A stretch of DNA of 64,000 nucleotides from the sequence record PZ495249.1. One strand, written 5' to 3'. A program made the position numbers and the translations under genes. Source of the stretch: a phage. Under the pieces are notes generated by a model, which was not told the DNA's origin, searched no databases, and saw only the letters and a list, made by a program, of their open reading frames with translations. Positions 7,140 through 57,997 of the stretch are shown here, one piece after another. The stretch's first letter is position 1. Each line of letters starts with the position of its first letter.

Positions 7140-8264
7140 TCACATAATCAGTGACAGGTTTGCACTTCGCGTTGTGCTTGGTTCCAGTACCACACGGAAG
7201 CTGTCGCCTGGTTCATCGCTGTACACCACCAGTTTACCACCTGCAATCAGGTCTGTCTTCCACTTCGTGGCGTTCAGGTGAATGCGTGGATCACCTTCAT
7301 CATCAATGATGACTGCGGAACATTCTTCGAATGCTTCCTGATTGTCCTGCGTTGCCGGACGCAGATAAACATCGAGGGTTTTGATGCCACTCAGGAATGA
7401 CATTGGATTGAATCCATGCCAGTTGCTAACCCAGTTCACTTCTGCCAGTTTACCGTTCACGGTGATATTGCTGATATCCCACTTGGCTTCGCCGCCCAGG
7501 GAAATACCCATCATATCCAGACACGCTTTGAAGGTCATGTCTTTGTAGAAGTTAAGCTCTTCCACGATGCCTTGAATCACATCGAAGGAGAGTTCCAAAC
7601 TCACATCCCACAGACGCTGGAAGCTTGCCTGATGCTCTTTATCATCGAGATTCTTATCCAGATAATCGAGCATTGTCTCCAGGGAGATCTTATCATAGTT
7701 GAAGCTGTAGAAGATACGGCTCGGACGGTTGATAAAGAACTCGGAGATGAAGCCGCTATTCTTGGTCAGAATAAACAGCTTGTTACCACTGCCTGTACCA
7801 TCCAAAAGCGTTAACAGCGCTTCCTGATCCTGTTTCTTCTCGTACACTTTGTCAAACTCATCGAAGATGACAATTGCTTTCTCTGCAATCTTGCTCATCA
7901 GTTCAATGAAATTGGCATCGCTATACGCTTGCGTTACCATAATAACTGGTAAACCCTCTGCTGCCAGTTTACGGCTAATCACCTTAGCCAGCATGGTTTT
8001 ACCGCTACCCTTTGTGCCGGATAAGAGAACACCTGTGTTCTTGCCCTGCTCCGCACGACGCTTGTAGGTAGAGATGATGTGCGATGCACGTTTCTCTGTT
8101 TCACCATACAGGACGCTTGGTACTCCTGTCAAATCCCCACGACTAAGGAAGTAGTTACCCAGTGGATCACGGCTCACTGTCCAGAAACCAGCAGGGAGAG
8201 TTTCGCTCTTGACACCTGCCTCTTTGTCCACTACTGCGATATCACCATAAATTGTGTATGACAC
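7140..8264 (-). CDS. P-loop ATPase (AAA-like), paralog of 24796..25956
   Basis: Walker A GTKGSGKT and Walker B IVIFDEFD; long blocks conserved with the 24796 gene product. Confidence 0.75.
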   Translation of the reverse strand: MSYTIYGDIAVVDKEAGVKSETLPAGFWTVSRDPLGNYFLSRGDLTGVPSVLYGETEKRASHIISTYKRRAEQGKNTGVLLSGTKGSGKTMLAKVISRKLAAEGLPVIMVTQAYSDANFIELMSKIAEKAIVIFDEFDKVYEKKQDQEALLTLLDGTGSGNKLFILTKNSGFISEFFINRPSRIFYSFNYDKISLETMLDYLDKNLDDKEHQASFQRLWDVSLELSFDVIQGIVEELNFYKDMTFKACLDMMGISLGGEAKWDISNITVNGKLAEVNWVSNWHGFNPMSFLSGIKTLDVYLRPATQDNQEAFEECSAVIIDDEGDPRIHLNATKWKTDLIAGGKLVVYSDEPGDSFRVVLEPSTTRSANLSLIM

Positions 8265-23232: not shown

Positions 23233-23445
23233 ATGTGTGAGAATGACACTATTGCTTTTGGAATGAATGCAGCAGAAATCGTGTTGACAATTTTTGCATT
23301 TGGTTCTATCATTGCCTTAGCTGTTGTGATGATTGCCTATCTTAACGGACATATTTTTGCCGATGCTGAAACTAAAGCAACCAGAGGTACTCTCACAAGA
23401 GAACAGATCTCAGAACTGCATAGCCACATGATACGCAAAGAATAA
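23233..23445 (+). CDS. small membrane protein (70 aa)
   Basis: track ORF; AGGAGA RBS; one hydrophobic helix. Confidence 0.5.
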   Translation: MCENDTIAFGMNAAEIVLTIFAFGSIIALAVVMIAYLNGHIFADAETKATRGTLTREQISELHSHMIRKE

Positions 23446-23460
23446 TTAAAGGAGAAAAGA

Positions 23461-23895
23461 ATGAGCATTGTAACTCAAATGAAAGCAGATCGTATTCTGG
23501 CACGTACCACAGATAAAGGTGCGTTCGCCCTGTTAACCAATATCATCGGTGAGTTTGATCTCGCTCGTACTCAGAAAGCGAATCTGGGTAAATCCGAAGA
23601 CGATATCATGATCAATATCGTAAAAGTCGGGATTGCTCACACCAAAGAAGAGATTGCTTCTCTGAAAGCTGTATCTGCTTCCCAGGCACGTATCGAACGT
23701 GCAGAGCGCGATGTTATCGTACTGGAGCGCTATCTGCCGGAAATGCTGTCTGAGGAAGACCTGCGTTTCATTGCAGAAGAATTTGCTCTATCTGGTAAGA
23801 AAATGCCCGATATGATGAAACACCTGCGTACTGATTTCCCTAACCAGTACGATGGTAAACTGGCTTCCACTATCGCTAAGGAGATCTTGGGATGA
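23461..23895 (+). CDS. GatB/YqeY-domain protein
   Basis: track ORF; AAAGGAGAAAAG RBS; YqeY-like helical pattern (..LERYLPEMLSEEDL..). Confidence 0.65.
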   Translation: MSIVTQMKADRILARTTDKGAFALLTNIIGEFDLARTQKANLGKSEDDIMINIVKVGIAHTKEEIASLKAVSASQARIERAERDVIVLERYLPEMLSEEDLRFIAEEFALSGKKMPDMMKHLRTDFPNQYDGKLASTIAKEILG

Positions 23896-24728
23896 ATATT
23901 TTAAAAATTGCTTTTGATGACAAGCAGCTTGATAAAGAAAAACTGCAAAACGTCTTAGATGCTATTCAAACTGATCACATTTTCTGGGAGAATGCTGATG
24001 AATTTATTCTCTTTTCAAGAGACGGGGAATTCACATGGCTTGAAAAAAGCGGAGATACCATTTCTCTTGGTGGTGGTGCAAATCTACCTGGTGGAGTTGA
24101 GGTGGTTGATTTTGATGTGTGGTACAAAGAGGCTATGAAAACACTTGGAGAAGAAACAATTACCGATAAGAAAGAAGATAAAATTATCGGTATTCCAGAA
24201 GGGTTTATCTATCACGATGGTAAATCTGTCGTAGGTGACAAAGATCGCAAAGTGAAGATCGTAGTTCGCGAGGGGGATGTATTAGATGGTAGGGTGGGAG
24301 AATTCCGTTGGAATCATTACGGCAATGACCGAGATATTGTAGGTTATAGATTCTTGGATGACAAGCCAACACCTGTACGTAACCCTCGTCCACGCTATCG
24401 TAAACGTACTCGTCAGAAGCCAACCGTGGCTAAAACTATCGTCCGTGTACTTTACACCACGCAGCAAGTGTACACGTTTAAAAACGTGCGCAGTGTGCAG
24501 GTGATCGATGGTACGGTGTACATCCAACATGAGCGGGAAGTCACCGAAGGTATTAAAGAGAGCATCGAAACTGAGATCGATGAAAAACTGCTGATGGCTG
24601 TAGTGATCCACGATGTGGGTAATCGCTCAAGCTTCCTGCGTAACATTGACGGCTCCTGGGATTACCAGGCAGAAGATGGTACGGTGATCAATGGCGGTAA
24701 ACAACTCGGTCGAATTTTTAAAAAATAA
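23892..24728 (+). CDS. hypothetical protein (278 aa)
   Basis: track ORF; ATGA overlap. Confidence 0.6.
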   Translation: MNILKIAFDDKQLDKEKLQNVLDAIQTDHIFWENADEFILFSRDGEFTWLEKSGDTISLGGGANLPGGVEVVDFDVWYKEAMKTLGEETITDKKEDKIIGIPEGFIYHDGKSVVGDKDRKVKIVVREGDVLDGRVGEFRWNHYGNDRDIVGYRFLDDKPTPVRNPRPRYRKRTRQKPTVAKTIVRVLYTTQQVYTFKNVRSVQVIDGTVYIQHEREVTEGIKESIETEIDEKLLMAVVIHDVGNRSSFLRNIDGSWDYQAEDGTVINGGKQLGRIFKK

Positions 24729-24795: not shown

Positions 24796-25956
24796 ATGTT
24801 CACACAATTCGGTAGCCAAATCTTCCTGCGTCAGAAATCCGGTGTTGATATCGACGTAATTCCAGCGGGTACTTATGGTATCGGCGTTACAATGGAAGGT
24901 GCGTTTTATCTGTACCCTAAAAACGATATGGAAGTGCCAGCCGTAACCTACGGCGACACAGATGACAAGTCCGAACGTATCATCAAGACGTTCCTGAGCC
25001 GTGATGGTAAGAACACTGGTGTTCTCCTGGAAGGTACTAAAGGCAGTGGTAAAACCCTGCAAGCGAAAATGCTGTCAGTGGCACTGCGTAAACAGGGCAT
25101 CCCTACCATCTCCATCGGTAGCCCGTTCAACGGTGAAGCGTTCATCAACTTCATGTCGAAAATCAAACAGCCGATCATGGTGATGGTGGATGAATTCGAT
25201 AAGCTTTATGCTGAGAAAGAACACCAGGACGGTCTGCTTACTCTGCTGGATGGTGTCGGTGGTTACAACAAACTGTTCGTTCTGACCAAAAACGATGGTT
25301 ATGTTTCTGAATTCCTGCGCAACCGACCAAGCCGTATCTTCTATAGCTTTAGCTATAAGAAACTGCCTAAGTCTACGCTGGATGATTACCTGGATAAAAA
25401 CCTGGTAAACAAAGCGTTCGTTGCAGACTTCGAAACTCTGTACAACCTGTCAGCAGATCTGAACTTCGACGTAATTCAGTCGCTGGTAGAAGAACTGAAC
25501 CGTTACCCTGACGATAAGTTCTCTGATGCGCTGAACCTGATGGGTATTTCGATCAACGAAGGTAGCCGTTCTGCCAAAGAGATTAAAACTCTGAAAGTGA
25601 ATGGTGTAGATCGTCTGCAAGATGTCCGTGGATTCGATCTGTCTGGAATGTCAGCACAGTCCCTGTTCCAGGGCGCTAAGTTCCAGATCAACGTAGACCA
25701 CAAAGAAGGTACTGAACGTCTGCCTAACATGAAAGGTGTTGTTACCCTTGACCAGCAGGACGCTGACGGCGATTGGTACTATGATTGCGACAAGATCTTC
25801 ATCAGCTACGATGAGAAGAGCATTAAGAGCATGGGCGGAGATGGTTATCACTTCGTGTTCGCTCAGGGCGATAACGTCATTGAGATTGAGGTGAAACAGA
25901 AAGAAACCCTCAACTACATGGATTACGCCTTCTCAGGCGCAGGTTACAACTACTAA
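24796..25956 (+). CDS. P-loop ATPase (AAA-like), paralog of 7140..8264
   Basis: track ORF 24751..25956 trimmed to Met with AAGGAGAAA RBS; Walker A GTKGSGKT; Walker B VMVDEFD. Confidence 0.75.
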   Translation: MFTQFGSQIFLRQKSGVDIDVIPAGTYGIGVTMEGAFYLYPKNDMEVPAVTYGDTDDKSERIIKTFLSRDGKNTGVLLEGTKGSGKTLQAKMLSVALRKQGIPTISIGSPFNGEAFINFMSKIKQPIMVMVDEFDKLYAEKEHQDGLLTLLDGVGGYNKLFVLTKNDGYVSEFLRNRPSRIFYSFSYKKLPKSTLDDYLDKNLVNKAFVADFETLYNLSADLNFDVIQSLVEELNRYPDDKFSDALNLMGISINEGSRSAKEIKTLKVNGVDRLQDVRGFDLSGMSAQSLFQGAKFQINVDHKEGTERLPNMKGVVTLDQQDADGDWYYDCDKIFISYDEKSIKSMGGDGYHFVFAQGDNVIEIEVKQKETLNYMDYAFSGAGYNY

Positions 25957-29839: not shown

Positions 29840-30820
29840 ATGACTCATTTCGGATTCCCACTGCTGGATATCGCAGTGCTGGTTGGTGTACTGGTACTGT
29901 CAATCGTAGTGGACTTCTTCGGTCATAAGGAGAATAAAGAGATTGGTATTAAAAGTGCGCTGGCATGGTCAGCATTCTGGATTGCCCTGGCGTTTGCGTA
30001 CTACGGTTTTATTTGGGTAGAGTACGGTAAAGAATTTGCTTCCCTCTTCCTAAGCGGGTATGTATTAGAGAAGTCCTTGTCGGTGGATAACCTGATGGTG
30101 TTCATGGCAATCTTTGCAAGTTTCGGTATCAAATCGACACACTTGCAGCATAAGATTCTGCTTTGGGGTATCGCAGGTGCAATCGTCTTCCGTGGTATCT
30201 TTGTAGCAGCAGGTACTGCACTGTTCAACCTTCACTGGTCTGTACAAGTGTTGTTCGGTTTGATTGTCGCATGGTCTGCAATGGCTATCATCAAAGGCGG
30301 TGAGGATGAAGAAGATGTGGATTACTCCAAACACTGGGCTACCCGTTTGGTTGGTAAGATCCTTCCGGTTCATCCGGCTCTTGATGGCGAGAAGTTCATC
30401 ACGATCAAAAACAATATCAAATACGCAACTCCAGCCCTGCTGTGTGTGTTCGTGGTAGAGTTTACTGACGTAATCTTCTCCTTCGACTCTGTACCTGCGG
30501 TGATCGGTGTGACACAAGAACCTCTGCTGGTTTACTCTGCGATGCTGTTCGCAATCCTGGGTTTACGTGCTTTGTTCTTCGTGCTGAGTGTTGCAGTTAA
30601 GTATCTGGTTCACCTGGAGAAAGCAGTGGCGGTGGTCCTGGTGTTTGTTGGTGCTAAACTGATTTACCACCCGTTCGGTGAAACGTTACATGCTAAGTGG
30701 GCGTTCCTGCCACACGATATCTCAGCCAACGTTAGTCTGTATATCGTACTGGGTACTTTGGCACTGGGTGTTCTGGCAAGCCTGGTCTTCCCTGAAAAAG
30801 AAGACGAAGCAACAGCTTAA
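29840..30820 (+). CDS. terC: TerC-family integral membrane protein
   Basis: LEKSLSVDNLMVF and FSFDSVPAVIGVT...AILGLRALFF motifs; about 9 helices; terminator downstream. Confidence 0.85.
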   Translation: MTHFGFPLLDIAVLVGVLVLSIVVDFFGHKENKEIGIKSALAWSAFWIALAFAYYGFIWVEYGKEFASLFLSGYVLEKSLSVDNLMVFMAIFASFGIKSTHLQHKILLWGIAGAIVFRGIFVAAGTALFNLHWSVQVLFGLIVAWSAMAIIKGGEDEEDVDYSKHWATRLVGKILPVHPALDGEKFITIKNNIKYATPALLCVFVVEFTDVIFSFDSVPAVIGVTQEPLLVYSAMLFAILGLRALFFVLSVAVKYLVHLEKAVAVVLVFVGAKLIYHPFGETLHAKWAFLPHDISANVSLYIVLGTLALGVLASLVFPEKEDEATA

Positions 30821-32513: not shown

Positions 32514-33617
32514 ATGTCTAAGAGTCCATTCCTGAATGCCGTGAAAGGCAATAAGCATGGTGCAAGTGTTCTGACCACTGTTGATGACAAACGCTCTGCA
32601 CTGGCTCCAAGTGTGCTGGAAGCAAGCCCTGTGTTTGCTCCGGCAGTTGTTAAACCTGTACCTGCTCTTCCTGCAATGAGCCGCAAGGAGATTGATGGAG
32701 TGGGCGCTGAGGCAGGACTAACTCTGCGTAGCCTCAACAGCGAAGTGCTGAAACACCAACGTGGTAATCAAGGCGGGGAGATGAATGAACGCCTCACTGC
32801 CCTGATTAAACAGGCTAAACAGCTTGATCCTTCTTCAATCAAGCAGTCAAAAGGCGTTGGTAAATTCATCAAGAAGATCATGGGGCTGAAAGAAGATCTG
32901 TTTGCTGAGTACGACAACGTTAACAACCGTATTGATGTTCTGGTGAAAGAACTGGAAGGTGATGTACGTAAAGAGGAAGATTCACTTGTCTATCTGGAAA
33001 AACTGAAATCCGCTATTGCTCAGTACGCCATGAGCCTTAACCGTGATGTGGAACTCCTGACGGACACCTACGCAAAAGAGGAAGCACGTTTCTTGAATAC
33101 ACCAGAGGAACAAGTGGAAACTCGTACCGAGATCCGTGATACCCTGGATATTCTGGAGATTCGTATTGCTGACCTTAAAGCACTGCGTCTGCTGTGTGTT
33201 CAGATGGGACCACGAGTGAACAGTATGATCAAGGTTAGCGAGATGCTTATGCGATCTGCTCGTAACATAGTGAACAACGTTATTCCGGCTTACTCTGCAA
33301 ACTTCTCAATGTATATTGAGAGCTTACGCCAGGCAGAAGCTGGTAAAACTCAGGCTAATGTGTTGGATGAATTCAACACTGCAATTCAAATGGGGAGCGA
33401 TTTGGCTGCACAAAACATTATCAATGCTACGGCTCTGTCTAACCGTCAGATTCTGGACATTGAAACCCTGCGTAAAGATCAGGAAAACCTGGTTAAAATG
33501 CTGGAAGAAACCAACCGCATCAATACCGAGGCTCGCGCCGCTCGTATTGATTACATCAACGAGGTTCAATCCCTGGAAGATGGGATGATCCAAAAAGTCA
33601 AATCTGGCTTAGTGTAA
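32514..33617 (+). CDS. TelA-like (toxic anion resistance family) helical protein
   Basis: track ORF; AAGGAGAAAGA RBS; all-helical 367 aa; C-terminal ILDIETLRKDQENL..EETNRIN pattern recalled from TelA/YaaN proteins. Confidence 0.6.
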   Translation: MSKSPFLNAVKGNKHGASVLTTVDDKRSALAPSVLEASPVFAPAVVKPVPALPAMSRKEIDGVGAEAGLTLRSLNSEVLKHQRGNQGGEMNERLTALIKQAKQLDPSSIKQSKGVGKFIKKIMGLKEDLFAEYDNVNNRIDVLVKELEGDVRKEEDSLVYLEKLKSAIAQYAMSLNRDVELLTDTYAKEEARFLNTPEEQVETRTEIRDTLDILEIRIADLKALRLLCVQMGPRVNSMIKVSEMLMRSARNIVNNVIPAYSANFSMYIESLRQAEAGKTQANVLDEFNTAIQMGSDLAAQNIINATALSNRQILDIETLRKDQENLVKMLEETNRINTEARAARIDYINEVQSLEDGMIQKVKSGLV

Positions 33618-55757: not shown

Positions 55758-56303
55758 TTATTTGGTTGGCAGGATAGGCCATTCAATATTAGTTGGATAG
55801 CCCTCTTGCGAAGTCACACGGCTTAGATATACCAAGTAACGTTGCAATTCTTTTAAGTAGGCAGCTTCTTCGTCAGTCATCATATCCAACTCTTTAGCCG
55901 CCTGTAACGGAGCCATAAGTTGAGAGACTTCGTTTTGTAATGTATCTGCTTTACTTTTTGCATTTGCAATCAGTTCTTCACGAGTTGGTATACGATCTTT
56001 TATTTTCCCTGTTCGAAGATCAAACACCTTGTTTTTGAAATCATCAATGACACCATCTAAATCAATATCGGCAATGCAAGCATTGATAGGCCACAAGCCA
56101 GATACATCCTTGGAGACGGATGTAATTACCCCAGACTGTTTATCGAAAACAATTTTCAGCTTATCATTATCAAACAAACGCTGGCATTCGTACCAATCTA
56201 CACCTTCTTGACTTTTCAGAAAAATGACGTTTAAAGTTTTCTGTAACTCCAGCTTGTCTTTATCTTCTGGGTTGTAAATTTTAAAATTTGTTAAAATAGT
56301 CAT
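55758..56303 (-). CDS. tail fibre assembly chaperone-like protein
   Basis: track ORF 55758..56327 trimmed to Met overlapping fibre stop (TAATG); Tfa-like C-terminus; sits immediately downstream of a fibre gene. Confidence 0.6.
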   Translation of the reverse strand: MTILTNFKIYNPEDKDKLELQKTLNVIFLKSQEGVDWYECQRLFDNDKLKIVFDKQSGVITSVSKDVSGLWPINACIADIDLDGVIDDFKNKVFDLRTGKIKDRIPTREELIANAKSKADTLQNEVSQLMAPLQAAKELDMMTDEEAAYLKELQRYLVYLSRVTSQEGYPTNIEWPILPTK

Positions 56304-57358
56304 TATAATTGTCCCACCGTGTACCAATTTCCGTTAACATTCTTCTGGACAGGTTTGAAATATAATGTATCCCCGCCAGGGTTTTCACCCTCGAAGTAAT
56401 AACCCATTACAAAACCGCCACCATCTGCTAAGACAGCCTGATTGTGTTTAATAATCTTCGTGTACGTCGCGCCTAAGCGGATATCTATAACACAGTTAGC
56501 AAGAGTCCAGTTCCAGTTGTTAGAGATCTGCCCTTGCAGGTAGTCCTGTACGTTAGTAATACGGTTGTTAACTGCACCAATCTGAGAGTTGATGTAGTTA
56601 GTTAGGTTGGTATTAACGTTGTTGATGTTGTTTTGCAACGTCGTCTGTAACGTGTTTAAACGTGAGTTTAAATAGTCTAAACGAACAAGCGCATTCTGGT
56701 TCACTGTATCCTGTGCATCGTTTGTACGAGGACTTGTCAGGGTAACATAACCACCATCCCACATAGTAACAACAGCAGTTTGAGCACCGTTTGCAGGGTT
56801 AATACGTGCCATTGATAAATAACCACCACCCGCATAAGTGGATGAGAAGTTACCATTAGTCTGACCAGCGAAATTCTGAAAGAAGATCGTTGCAGCATCT
56901 GTTGTGCTTGTACCACAGACATAAATATCACCGCCCCAAATACCACCATTACCATCTCGCTTAACTAATACGTTAGGAGTGACAACATTACTTGTAGCAT
57001 CTGAGATATTCGCTGATAAGTGGTTGTGACTGTTATCTACCACCTGAATTGAAAGAGTAACCTCTTTGTTACCATTCCAAGTTACAGAACCCGTGGCATC
57101 ACCAGCCATTGTAATCTTAGTACCAACAAGCGGAAGATAGGTGTTTGGTAACGTTGGCATGAAGTCATCTACGATGTAGTGAATCCATAATCCAAGGTTA
57201 TTCAGCAGCCAGTTTAATTCTTCGCAAGTCATAATTTGACCGAAGTCCATACCCACTGTGCGGATAGTTTCTTTCGGTCTAATCTTGTTTGTGTTCCCTG
57301 TCCCTGGAAGCGTTACTGTTTGTGTCGCCCAATCAGGGTAGTATGTTGGCTTAGCCAT
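56303..57358 (-). CDS. tail fibre protein (351 aa)
   Basis: Asn-rich coiled segment NNINNVNTNLTNYINSQIGAVNNRITNVQ; AAGGAG RBS; followed by chaperone gene. Confidence 0.6.
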   Translation of the reverse strand: MAKPTYYPDWATQTVTLPGTGNTNKIRPKETIRTVGMDFGQIMTCEELNWLLNNLGLWIHYIVDDFMPTLPNTYLPLVGTKITMAGDATGSVTWNGNKEVTLSIQVVDNSHNHLSANISDATSNVVTPNVLVKRDGNGGIWGGDIYVCGTSTTDAATIFFQNFAGQTNGNFSSTYAGGGYLSMARINPANGAQTAVVTMWDGGYVTLTSPRTNDAQDTVNQNALVRLDYLNSRLNTLQTTLQNNINNVNTNLTNYINSQIGAVNNRITNVQDYLQGQISNNWNWTLANCVIDIRLGATYTKIIKHNQAVLADGGGFVMGYYFEGENPGGDTLYFKPVQKNVNGNWYTVGQL

Positions 57359-57367
57359 TTAAACTCC

Positions 57368-57997
57368 TTACTCTATTTGCGCTATTAGCATACACATGCG
57401 TCCAGTTTCTTCTCCGGTAGATTCCATGTATAGGGAACCCAGGCCACCAATCCCATGAGGGGGCTTAGTCGCGTAATAGGAAGTGAAACCGAAAGCCGAT
57501 CCAGACTTCGCTCCTAAACGGTAGCTACTTAAAATTGGGAAAACGTTAAGCAGTTGCGCAATAGCCTGATCAGATTGCAGACACAAGTTATAAAAGAATA
57601 CGTCGAAGGTTTTGTTTAACCCAACGTATGTGTTAATCGTAGATCTATCTGTACCTGTGAAACGAGCGAAAATATCAATAATGTCGCCTCGTGTACCAGA
57701 GGATGCAACACGATATGCCCTGATTTTTAAAATCGTTCTATACTCTTCATCGTCAGAACCATTTCGTTCGATCCCCATTTCTTCACCGATGATATCGAGA
57801 TATTCACCTGTAGCAGTGGAGATCAAACGGTGTTTAGCAAGATAGATCATTGCCTGATCTATCTTTTGCTTTTCACTTGAAATGACGTAAAGGAGCTTGA
57901 CAATGTTTTCAGAAGATTTAAAATCTTCAATCAGGAGGTTTTTAACATCTTCATTGATATTATCCCAAGTCGTTACATGGTCAACACTCACTGCCAT
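57368..57997 (-). CDS. baseplate protein (P2 gpI-like position)
   Basis: track ORF; called from position next to the gpJ-like gene, in P2-like J-I-H-G order. Confidence 0.5.
   Translation of the reverse strand: MAVSVDHVTTWDNINEDVKNLLIEDFKSSENIVKLLYVISSEKQKIDQAMIYLAKHRLISTATGEYLDIIGEEMGIERNGSDDEEYRTILKIRAYRVASSGTRGDIIDIFARFTGTDRSTINTYVGLNKTFDVFFYNLCLQSDQAIAQLLNVFPILSSYRLGAKSGSAFGFTSYYATKPPHGIGGLGSLYMESTGEETGRMCMLIAQIE

Follow-up and report, generated by a model that had tools for sequence, protein, structure and literature searches.

YqeY domains are known from enzymes that handle tRNA and from small free-standing proteins. The tail of GatB and GatE touches the D-loop region of tRNA (PMC2811023), and a YqeY appendix of the Deinococcus glutaminyl-tRNA synthetase (GlnRS) increases the affinity for tRNA-Gln, in cis only (PMC1865053). 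Bacterial yqeY is mostly found in an operon with rpsU, the gene for bS21, and is co-regulated with it (PMC1865053, PMC13374519); YqeY and bS21 are both candidate components of the OLE ribonucleoprotein, and binding of OLE RNA by YqeY is supported by preliminary, unpublished evidence (PMC12054373). Free-standing YqeY is without an established function, despite structures available since 2003. YqeY genes of phages have been mentioned in phage genome papers (PMC5587285, PMC1524935). Here, a YqeY-family gene at positions 23461..23895 (plus strand) of a 64,000-nt stretch of phage record PZ495249.1 (single strand, 5' to 3'; hereafter the window) was analysed by comparison of sequences, predicted structure and gene context. 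The gene is genuine and conserved, and its product is almost certainly a non-catalytic member of the YqeY family.

Reality of the gene, family and fold

The open reading frame (ORF) encodes 144 aa from ATG to TGA and is preceded by a Shine-Dalgarno sequence, AGGAG, read from the sequence at 23450..23454 (plus strand), 6 nt 5' of the start codon; the orthologue in Escherichia phage phi92 carries an annotated AGGAG ribosome-binding site at the matching position. Twenty-seven orthologues were aligned at 61-91% identity and have 43 invariant positions in common. The ratio of non-synonymous to synonymous substitution rates (dN/dS) was 0.12 against the orthologue of Klebsiella phage phi1_175008, and synonymous sites were saturated in the comparison with the phi92 orthologue. 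The region is approximately 84% nucleotide-identical to Klebsiella phages of the Stephanstirmvirinae and is related to phi92, and the window phage is a phi92-like myovirus.

The first-pass annotation had described a 144-aa all-helical protein of the YqeY pattern, to be abandoned if profile or structure comparison gave no YqeY fold; the description was borne out by both kinds of comparison. The Pfam family YqeY (PF09424) was matched at 29.8 bits (E 7.2e-7, profile positions 36-143 of 143), a score that barely clears the gathering cut-off of 27, and was the sole Pfam match of the protein at E<=10. The match to phrog_1460 was much stronger (E 9.1e-33, 114 bits) and placed residues 1-142 on profile positions 1-139 of 140. 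The only significant sequence matches in the Protein Data Bank (PDB) were the YqeY entries 1NG6, 8XJG and 8XJE. An AlphaFold2 model built from the orthologue alignment (mean predicted local distance difference test score, pLDDT, 93) contains seven helices, four in the N-terminal domain (residues 3-17, 19-36, 46-70 and 75-89) and three in the C-terminal domain (98-110, 115-125 and 132-143). The model superposes over its full length on the solved YqeY structures, which have a two-domain all-alpha fold, and its N-terminal domain is matched by the N-terminal portions of 1NG6, 8XJG and 8XJE.

On the DNA, the N-terminal helical domain (residues 1-90, four helices) corresponds to 23461..23730 on the plus strand, and the inter-domain motif YLPEMLS together with the C-terminal three-helix bundle (residues 91-144), a homologue of the GatB/GatE tail, to 23731..23892 on the same strand. 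YLPEMLS is the form taken here by the YLPxQLS motif, with M in place of Q, and the C-terminal loop N-Q-Y-D-G-K is a phage-subfamily variant, to be compared with G-[KR]-A-D-G in cellular proteins. The predicted isoelectric point (pI) is 5.8 for the whole protein and 4.9 for its C-terminal half. The protein is a free-standing one of 144 aa with a single Pfam family match, and its relatives are of 130-155 aa with full-length matches.

The viral subfamily and the amidotransferase name

Among 1.84 billion cluster representatives (50% identity), searched exhaustively, 883 relatives were found at E<=1e-3, nearly all of 130-155 aa and matched over the full length. Their viral or cellular origin was judged from the contrast between PHROG and Pfam scores and from contig sizes. 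In a diverse sample, phrog_1460 was matched by 55 of 55 proteins (best E 5e-40) and Pfam YqeY by 54 of 55, at moderate scores (best E 4e-21); the relatives that were looked up are metagenomic proteins, on contigs that reach 108-195 kb. The subfamily loop reads G-x-Y-D-G-K-x-A-S, whereas G-[KR]-A-D-G, or a variant of it, is seen in the cellular proteins of solved structure. Residues R15, L25, P93, M119, Y130, D131, G132 and A135 are near-invariant across the sample, and the most conserved of them (P93, M119, Y130, D131, G132, A135) fall in the C-terminal part; in the N-terminal domain, K8, D10, A14, R15, L25, G30, E31, D47, K55 and E63 are conserved in common with the wider phage subfamily. Large and jumbo phages, among them pf16, nt-1, Bacillus phage G, Atu_ph07, CcrColossus, Serratia BF and Acinetobacter ME3, contribute about 24 viral clusters of the same fold to the BFVD. 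The phage proteins are a YqeY subfamily of their own (PHROG 1460), carried by many phages that are large and rich in tRNA genes.

The protein is 83-86% identical to proteins of about 60 deposited phage genomes, and phi92 gp195 (YP_009012528.1) is its orthologue at 83% identity. Since gp195 and other records carry annotation, the feature had already been catalogued, and the YqeY gene is a known, annotated accessory gene of phi92-like and large tRNA-rich phages. The annotation of gp195 is 'tRNA amidotransferase; putative Aspartyl/glutamyl-tRNA synthetase / YqeY-like protein', and the names in other records are 'Asn/Gln-tRNA amidotransferase subunit B', 'Yqe Y-like protein' and 'hypothetical protein'. 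An 83%-identical copy, indistinguishable from the phi92-like phages of E. coli, was also found in INPHARED record MG065645.1, 'Campylobacter phage A145' (146 kb, unannotated), and the host label of that record looks doubtful.

Taken literally, the public names make the protein a subunit of a functional Asp/Glu-tRNA amidotransferase, and support for this comes from the database records and the PHROG label of phrog_1460 ('tRNA amidotransferase') only. Neither the GatB_N catalytic cradle nor the helical domain is present in the 144-aa protein, for which Pfam at E<=10 returns YqeY alone and no match to GatB_Yqey (PF02637). The GatA amidase and the GatB cradle were absent from the protein and from 12 large window ORFs searched against Pfam, and no amidase or GatB_N is annotated in approximately 112 kb of the nearest relative, phi1_175008, GatC (about 95 aa) not having been specifically searched for. 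The GatB tail is set apart from YqeY by an extra helix, alpha14, and a Lys-rich KxGKxK motif (PMC2811023); both are missing from the phage protein, because its C-terminal domain consists of three helices and the linker of the bundle reads LSGKKMPD. A weak match between the phage-subfamily profile and residues 569-627 of the GatE tail (1zq1_C, E 0.0023) covered the C-terminal half only, so that the GatB part of the first-pass name 'GatB/YqeY-domain protein' fits more loosely than the YqeY part. In enterobacteria, E. coli and Klebsiella included, GlnRS and AsnRS do the charging directly, and GatCAB is not known from these two. As no catalytic domain is present, the protein is not an amidotransferase; the literal reading is effectively refuted and its probability is close to nil. 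The database name 'tRNA amidotransferase' is an over-annotation, for which 'YqeY-like protein, non-catalytic' is the better name, and correction of this widespread name is the main practical result for the window.

Gene context and a candidate role

The context of the gene was compared over 39 IMG/VR loci, obtained from three motif-restricted scans blind to tRNA content and pooled with the window and four INPHARED loci; collapsing at 60% identity left 30 lineages. At least four tRNAs lie within 10 kb of the YqeY gene in 11-12 of the 30 lineages and a tRNA lies within 2.6 kb in 9 of 30, invariably on the strand of the YqeY gene. In Vibrio phage River4 the gene is surrounded by an array of 22 tRNAs, with tRNA-Val 119 nt upstream and tRNA-Trp 229 nt downstream of it. 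Under a deliberately generous null model, in which every phage genome measures at least 100 kb and has one 8-kb tRNA array, the tail probabilities were 0.02-0.05 for the 10 kb criterion and 0.013 for the 2.6 kb criterion, the latter falling to about 1e-4 if only half of the phages carry arrays.

Recurrent neighbours were counted on the same strand within 5 kb of the YqeY-like gene. A metallophosphoesterase (PF00149 / phrog_547) was found in five lineages, and an RF-1/GGQ protein (PF00472), a P-loop kinase resembling polynucleotide kinase (AAA_33), a T4 RnlA-type RNA ligase (phrog_562, E 1e-51) and an 'RNA-binding protein' (DUF2828 / phrog_850) in three lineages each. The ligase has a KxNG motif recognised by eye and no Pfam match, its assignment to the T4 RnlA type being supported by PHROGs; in three lineages the YqeY gene stands beside the RNA ligase, the P-loop kinase and the RNA-binding protein. 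In other lineages the gene is accordingly enriched in the vicinity of tRNA arrays and of genes for RNA repair, and in a substantial minority of them it is part of an island for tRNA supply and RNA repair.

Several further observations were made at these loci. Members of the phrog_850 family (at locus L015, 7314-8735) were recorded beside the YqeY-like gene in three viral lineages other than phi1_175008, and a phrog_850 protein (DUF2828/DUF7788) lies within the tRNA array of phi1_175008 itself (locus L039, 5946-7376; phi1_175008 55946-57376); no homologue of this 'RNA-binding protein' was found within the 64-kb window. In three independent viral lineages, the closest tRNA upstream of the YqeY-like gene is tRNA-Gln(UUG) (at 838 nt, 382 nt and 5.7 kb; tRNA-Gln(UUG) coordinates: L012 9083-9163, L046 9123-9198, L043 4179-4255 and L003 4625-4700), and tRNA-Gln is the second-nearest in River4; with a binomial P of about 0.07 this is a lead only, despite the precedents of GlnRS-YqeY and of GatB with tRNA-Gln. 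The arrays at L030 (5711-5786) and L014 (584-658) hold a tRNA with a CUA anticodon (amber suppressor; 'Pyl' in ARAGORN) and a tRNA with a four-base 'tttc' anticodon, which may be suppressor or frameshift tRNAs.

Of the roles considered, the most likely is that of an adaptor without enzyme activity, working on tRNA (or some other structured RNA) jointly with a partner protein. The C-terminal bundle corresponds to the GatB/GatE tail that contacts the D-loop or elbow of tRNA, and likewise to the Deinococcus GlnRS appendix that raises the affinity for tRNA-Gln; binding of tRNA or other RNA by phage YqeY is suggested by gene context and by homology to the GatB/GatE tail. The phage would use the protein for its own set of tRNAs, in charging, maturation, repair or protection, and the benefit would arise in a host without a YqeY of its own. 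This tRNA- or RNA-helper mechanism, serving the phage's own tRNA economy, is proposed tentatively and given somewhat less than an even chance.

Several points weigh against the helper mechanism. No tRNA gene is present in the 64-kb window, and in phi1_175008 the YqeY gene lies about 56 kb from the 17-tRNA array, on the opposite strand. The RNA-repair and RF-1 neighbours have no homologue in the window by tblastn, and the RNA-repair/RF-1 context is therefore not transferable to the phi92-like clade, in which the YqeY gene is found amid helicase, ATPase and nucleotide-metabolism genes. Approximately 60% of the lineages have no nearby tRNA, the P values are modest, and tRNA arrays and small accessory genes may simply share early-gene regions. 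The mild acidity of the protein, most marked in its C-terminal half, is atypical of an RNA binder. The one published test of an isolated YqeY domain, that of Deinococcus, gave no tRNA shift and no complementation in trans (PMC1865053), and a YqeY-family member of Pichia (Aim41/NUQM) bridges domains of complex I (PMC12487887). The literature yielded remarks on phage YqeY in genome papers but no experiment on such a protein.

The Pichia precedent, the acidity of the protein and its replication-module neighbours would all suit a protein-protein adaptor without an RNA role, a helical bridge or scaffold for a phage or host complex such as the replication/nucleotide-metabolism module. Such an adaptor leaves the repeated placement at tRNA arrays and at RNA ligase and kinase genes unexplained; the gene downstream of YqeY in the window is a mosaic, not kept intact across the clade, and the most conserved residues of the protein lie in a C-terminal loop that would match the tRNA-facing pocket of the GatB tail. 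A purely protein-bridging role is considered unlikely.

A ribosome-associated factor linked to bS21, given to a host that lacks YqeY and altering initiation or ribosome behaviour toward phage mRNAs, would be in line with the yqeY-rpsU operon and its co-regulation (PMC1865053, PMC13374519), with the candidacy of both proteins as OLE components, with the reported absence of yqeY from E. coli and with the RF-1/GGQ proteins that adjoin the YqeY gene in three viral lineages. No match to bS21 was obtained in the window and loci (40 sequences; tblastn with an approximate E. coli bS21 query and limited sensitivity), no direct evidence for binding of YqeY to ribosomes was found in the literature, and the most conserved loop of the phage subfamily has diverged from its counterpart in cellular YqeY. 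The ribosomal role is accordingly held to be quite improbable.

The first-pass annotation had connected the domain with tRNA-dependent amidotransferases and translation, a link that is plausible, and had gone on to suggest interference with host aminoacyl-tRNA metabolism, which found no support. An inhibitor or decoy that sequesters host tRNAs or blocks a synthetase would draw on a C-terminal bundle homologous to the tail with which GatB/GatE bind tRNA and on the early or middle gene region in which the phi92-like YqeY gene is located, where host-takeover genes are common. The protein is, however, a non-catalytic helical module, with neither GatA nor the GatB cradle encoded among the 12 large ORFs. 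The enterobacterial host is reported to be without yqeY (PMC13374519), and a search of 5,426 complete E. coli genomes, sensitive down to approximately 65-70% identity, returned no similar DNA; one distant GatB/YqeY gene was found on a Pseudomonas megaplasmid. The host is also not known to have a GatCAB pathway with which the protein could compete, and with neither YqeY nor GatCAB there would be nothing in it to mimic or jam. The isolated domain neither shifted tRNA nor acted in trans, the phage relies on the synthetases of the host for charging its approximately 17 tRNAs, and no reports of toxicity or shut-off were found in the literature. Elsewhere the gene is co-oriented with phage tRNA arrays and RNA-repair genes, an arrangement that suits cooperation better than sabotage and reads as support for phage translation. 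Host interference is therefore regarded as very unlikely, and the context speaks more for a protein that assists phage tRNAs, the statistics being modest.

A narrower form of the helper mechanism sees in phrog_1460, with its invariant Y-D-G loop, a cofactor that is dedicated to phage tRNA islands and acts in trans. The small adaptor would dock on the elbow or D-loop of tRNA and recruit or stimulate a partner, which could be GlnRS or another synthetase of the host, or else the phage repair set of RnlA-type ligase, kinase and phosphoesterase, and phage tRNAs would then be kept charged or intact when host defences target tRNAs. This version is speculative and rather doubtful; if true, it would provide the first defined free-standing function for the long-orphan YqeY fold. 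Phages keep a large, separately evolving YqeY subfamily, often beside tRNA arrays and RNA-repair genes, and with small genomes and easy knockouts this subfamily is a tractable route to the function of the fold.

Neighbouring genes and comparison with known systems

In the window, a UvrD-like helicase and two small ORFs lie upstream of the YqeY gene, the immediate upstream neighbour being a predicted membrane protein of 70 aa (23233-23445), and a 278-aa ORF followed by an AAA ATPase lies downstream. The ATG of the 278-aa ORF (23892..24728, plus strand) overlaps the YqeY stop codon (ATGA), and from this overlap the ORF is probably translationally coupled to the YqeY gene. It is a mosaic of two phi1_175008 genes: its N-terminus resembles a separate 90-aa gene (47% identity) and its last 100 aa resemble the end of a 323-aa gene (81% identity). 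No Pfam match and no PDB sequence match was obtained for this ORF, and the PHROG label 'ribonucleotide reductase' comes without support from either, the match to phrog_15930 being confined to the C-terminal half. The Pfam scan of the 12 large window ORFs gave helicase, AAA ATPases, TerC, TelA, glycosyltransferases, primase-helicase, PolA, an Ig-like tail protein and baseplate J.

Two AAA/nSTAND3-like ATPases of 374 and 386 aa (7143-8264, minus strand, and 24796-25956, plus strand) have identical Pfam match patterns on opposite strands and, judged from these patterns, may be paralogues. Homologues of a TerC-family membrane protein (29840-30817, plus strand) and of TelA (tellurite/toxic-anion resistance; 32514-33614, plus strand) are in line with the 'tellurium resistance' annotation of phi92.

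The closest described relatives are phi92 gp195 and the Stephanstirmvirinae orthologues (Klebsiella phages phi1_175008, FKP3 and KP2025; Justusliebigvirus), which are 83-86% identical over all 144 residues. In this group the gene is likewise located between a UvrD-like helicase (upstream) and an AAA ATPase (downstream) and has the same AGGAG site; phi92 differs in having gp196 where the window has the 70-aa membrane protein, and the window differs in its mosaic 278-aa ORF. The public enzyme names of the group ('tRNA amidotransferase', 'Asn/Gln-tRNA amidotransferase subunit B' and 'aspartyl/glutamyl-tRNA synthetase') are unsupported by domain content. gp196 (L001, 7416-7985), labelled 'histidyl tRNA synthetase / putative seryl-tRNA synthetase' and located directly upstream of the phi92 YqeY gene, was considered as a translation-linked neighbour and rejected, as it has no Pfam match and no homologue in the window; its synthetase label looks unfounded.

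Among cellular proteins, Aim41/NUQM of Pichia pastoris complex I (9IHR/9IHQ) is 10% identical to the phage protein and belongs to a eukaryotic organellar setting, and its demonstrated role is that of a protein-protein bridge, not of RNA binding (PMC12487887). The free-standing bacterial YqeY proteins of B. subtilis (1NG6), V. parahaemolyticus (8XJG) and C. jejuni (8XJE) are 14-20% identical to it in structural alignments; they differ from it in the loop described above, and the rpsU linkage of bacterial yqeY was not found for the phage gene in the 40 sequences searched. The GatB/GatE tail and the GlnRS appendix of Deinococcus radiodurans have C-terminal three-helix bundles homologous to that of the phage protein, from which the GatB tail is distinguished by its extra helix and KxGKxK motif; the phage protein is without both of these, without a PF02637 match and without a catalytic domain. 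The tail and the appendix act in cis within an enzyme, whereas the phage protein stands alone.
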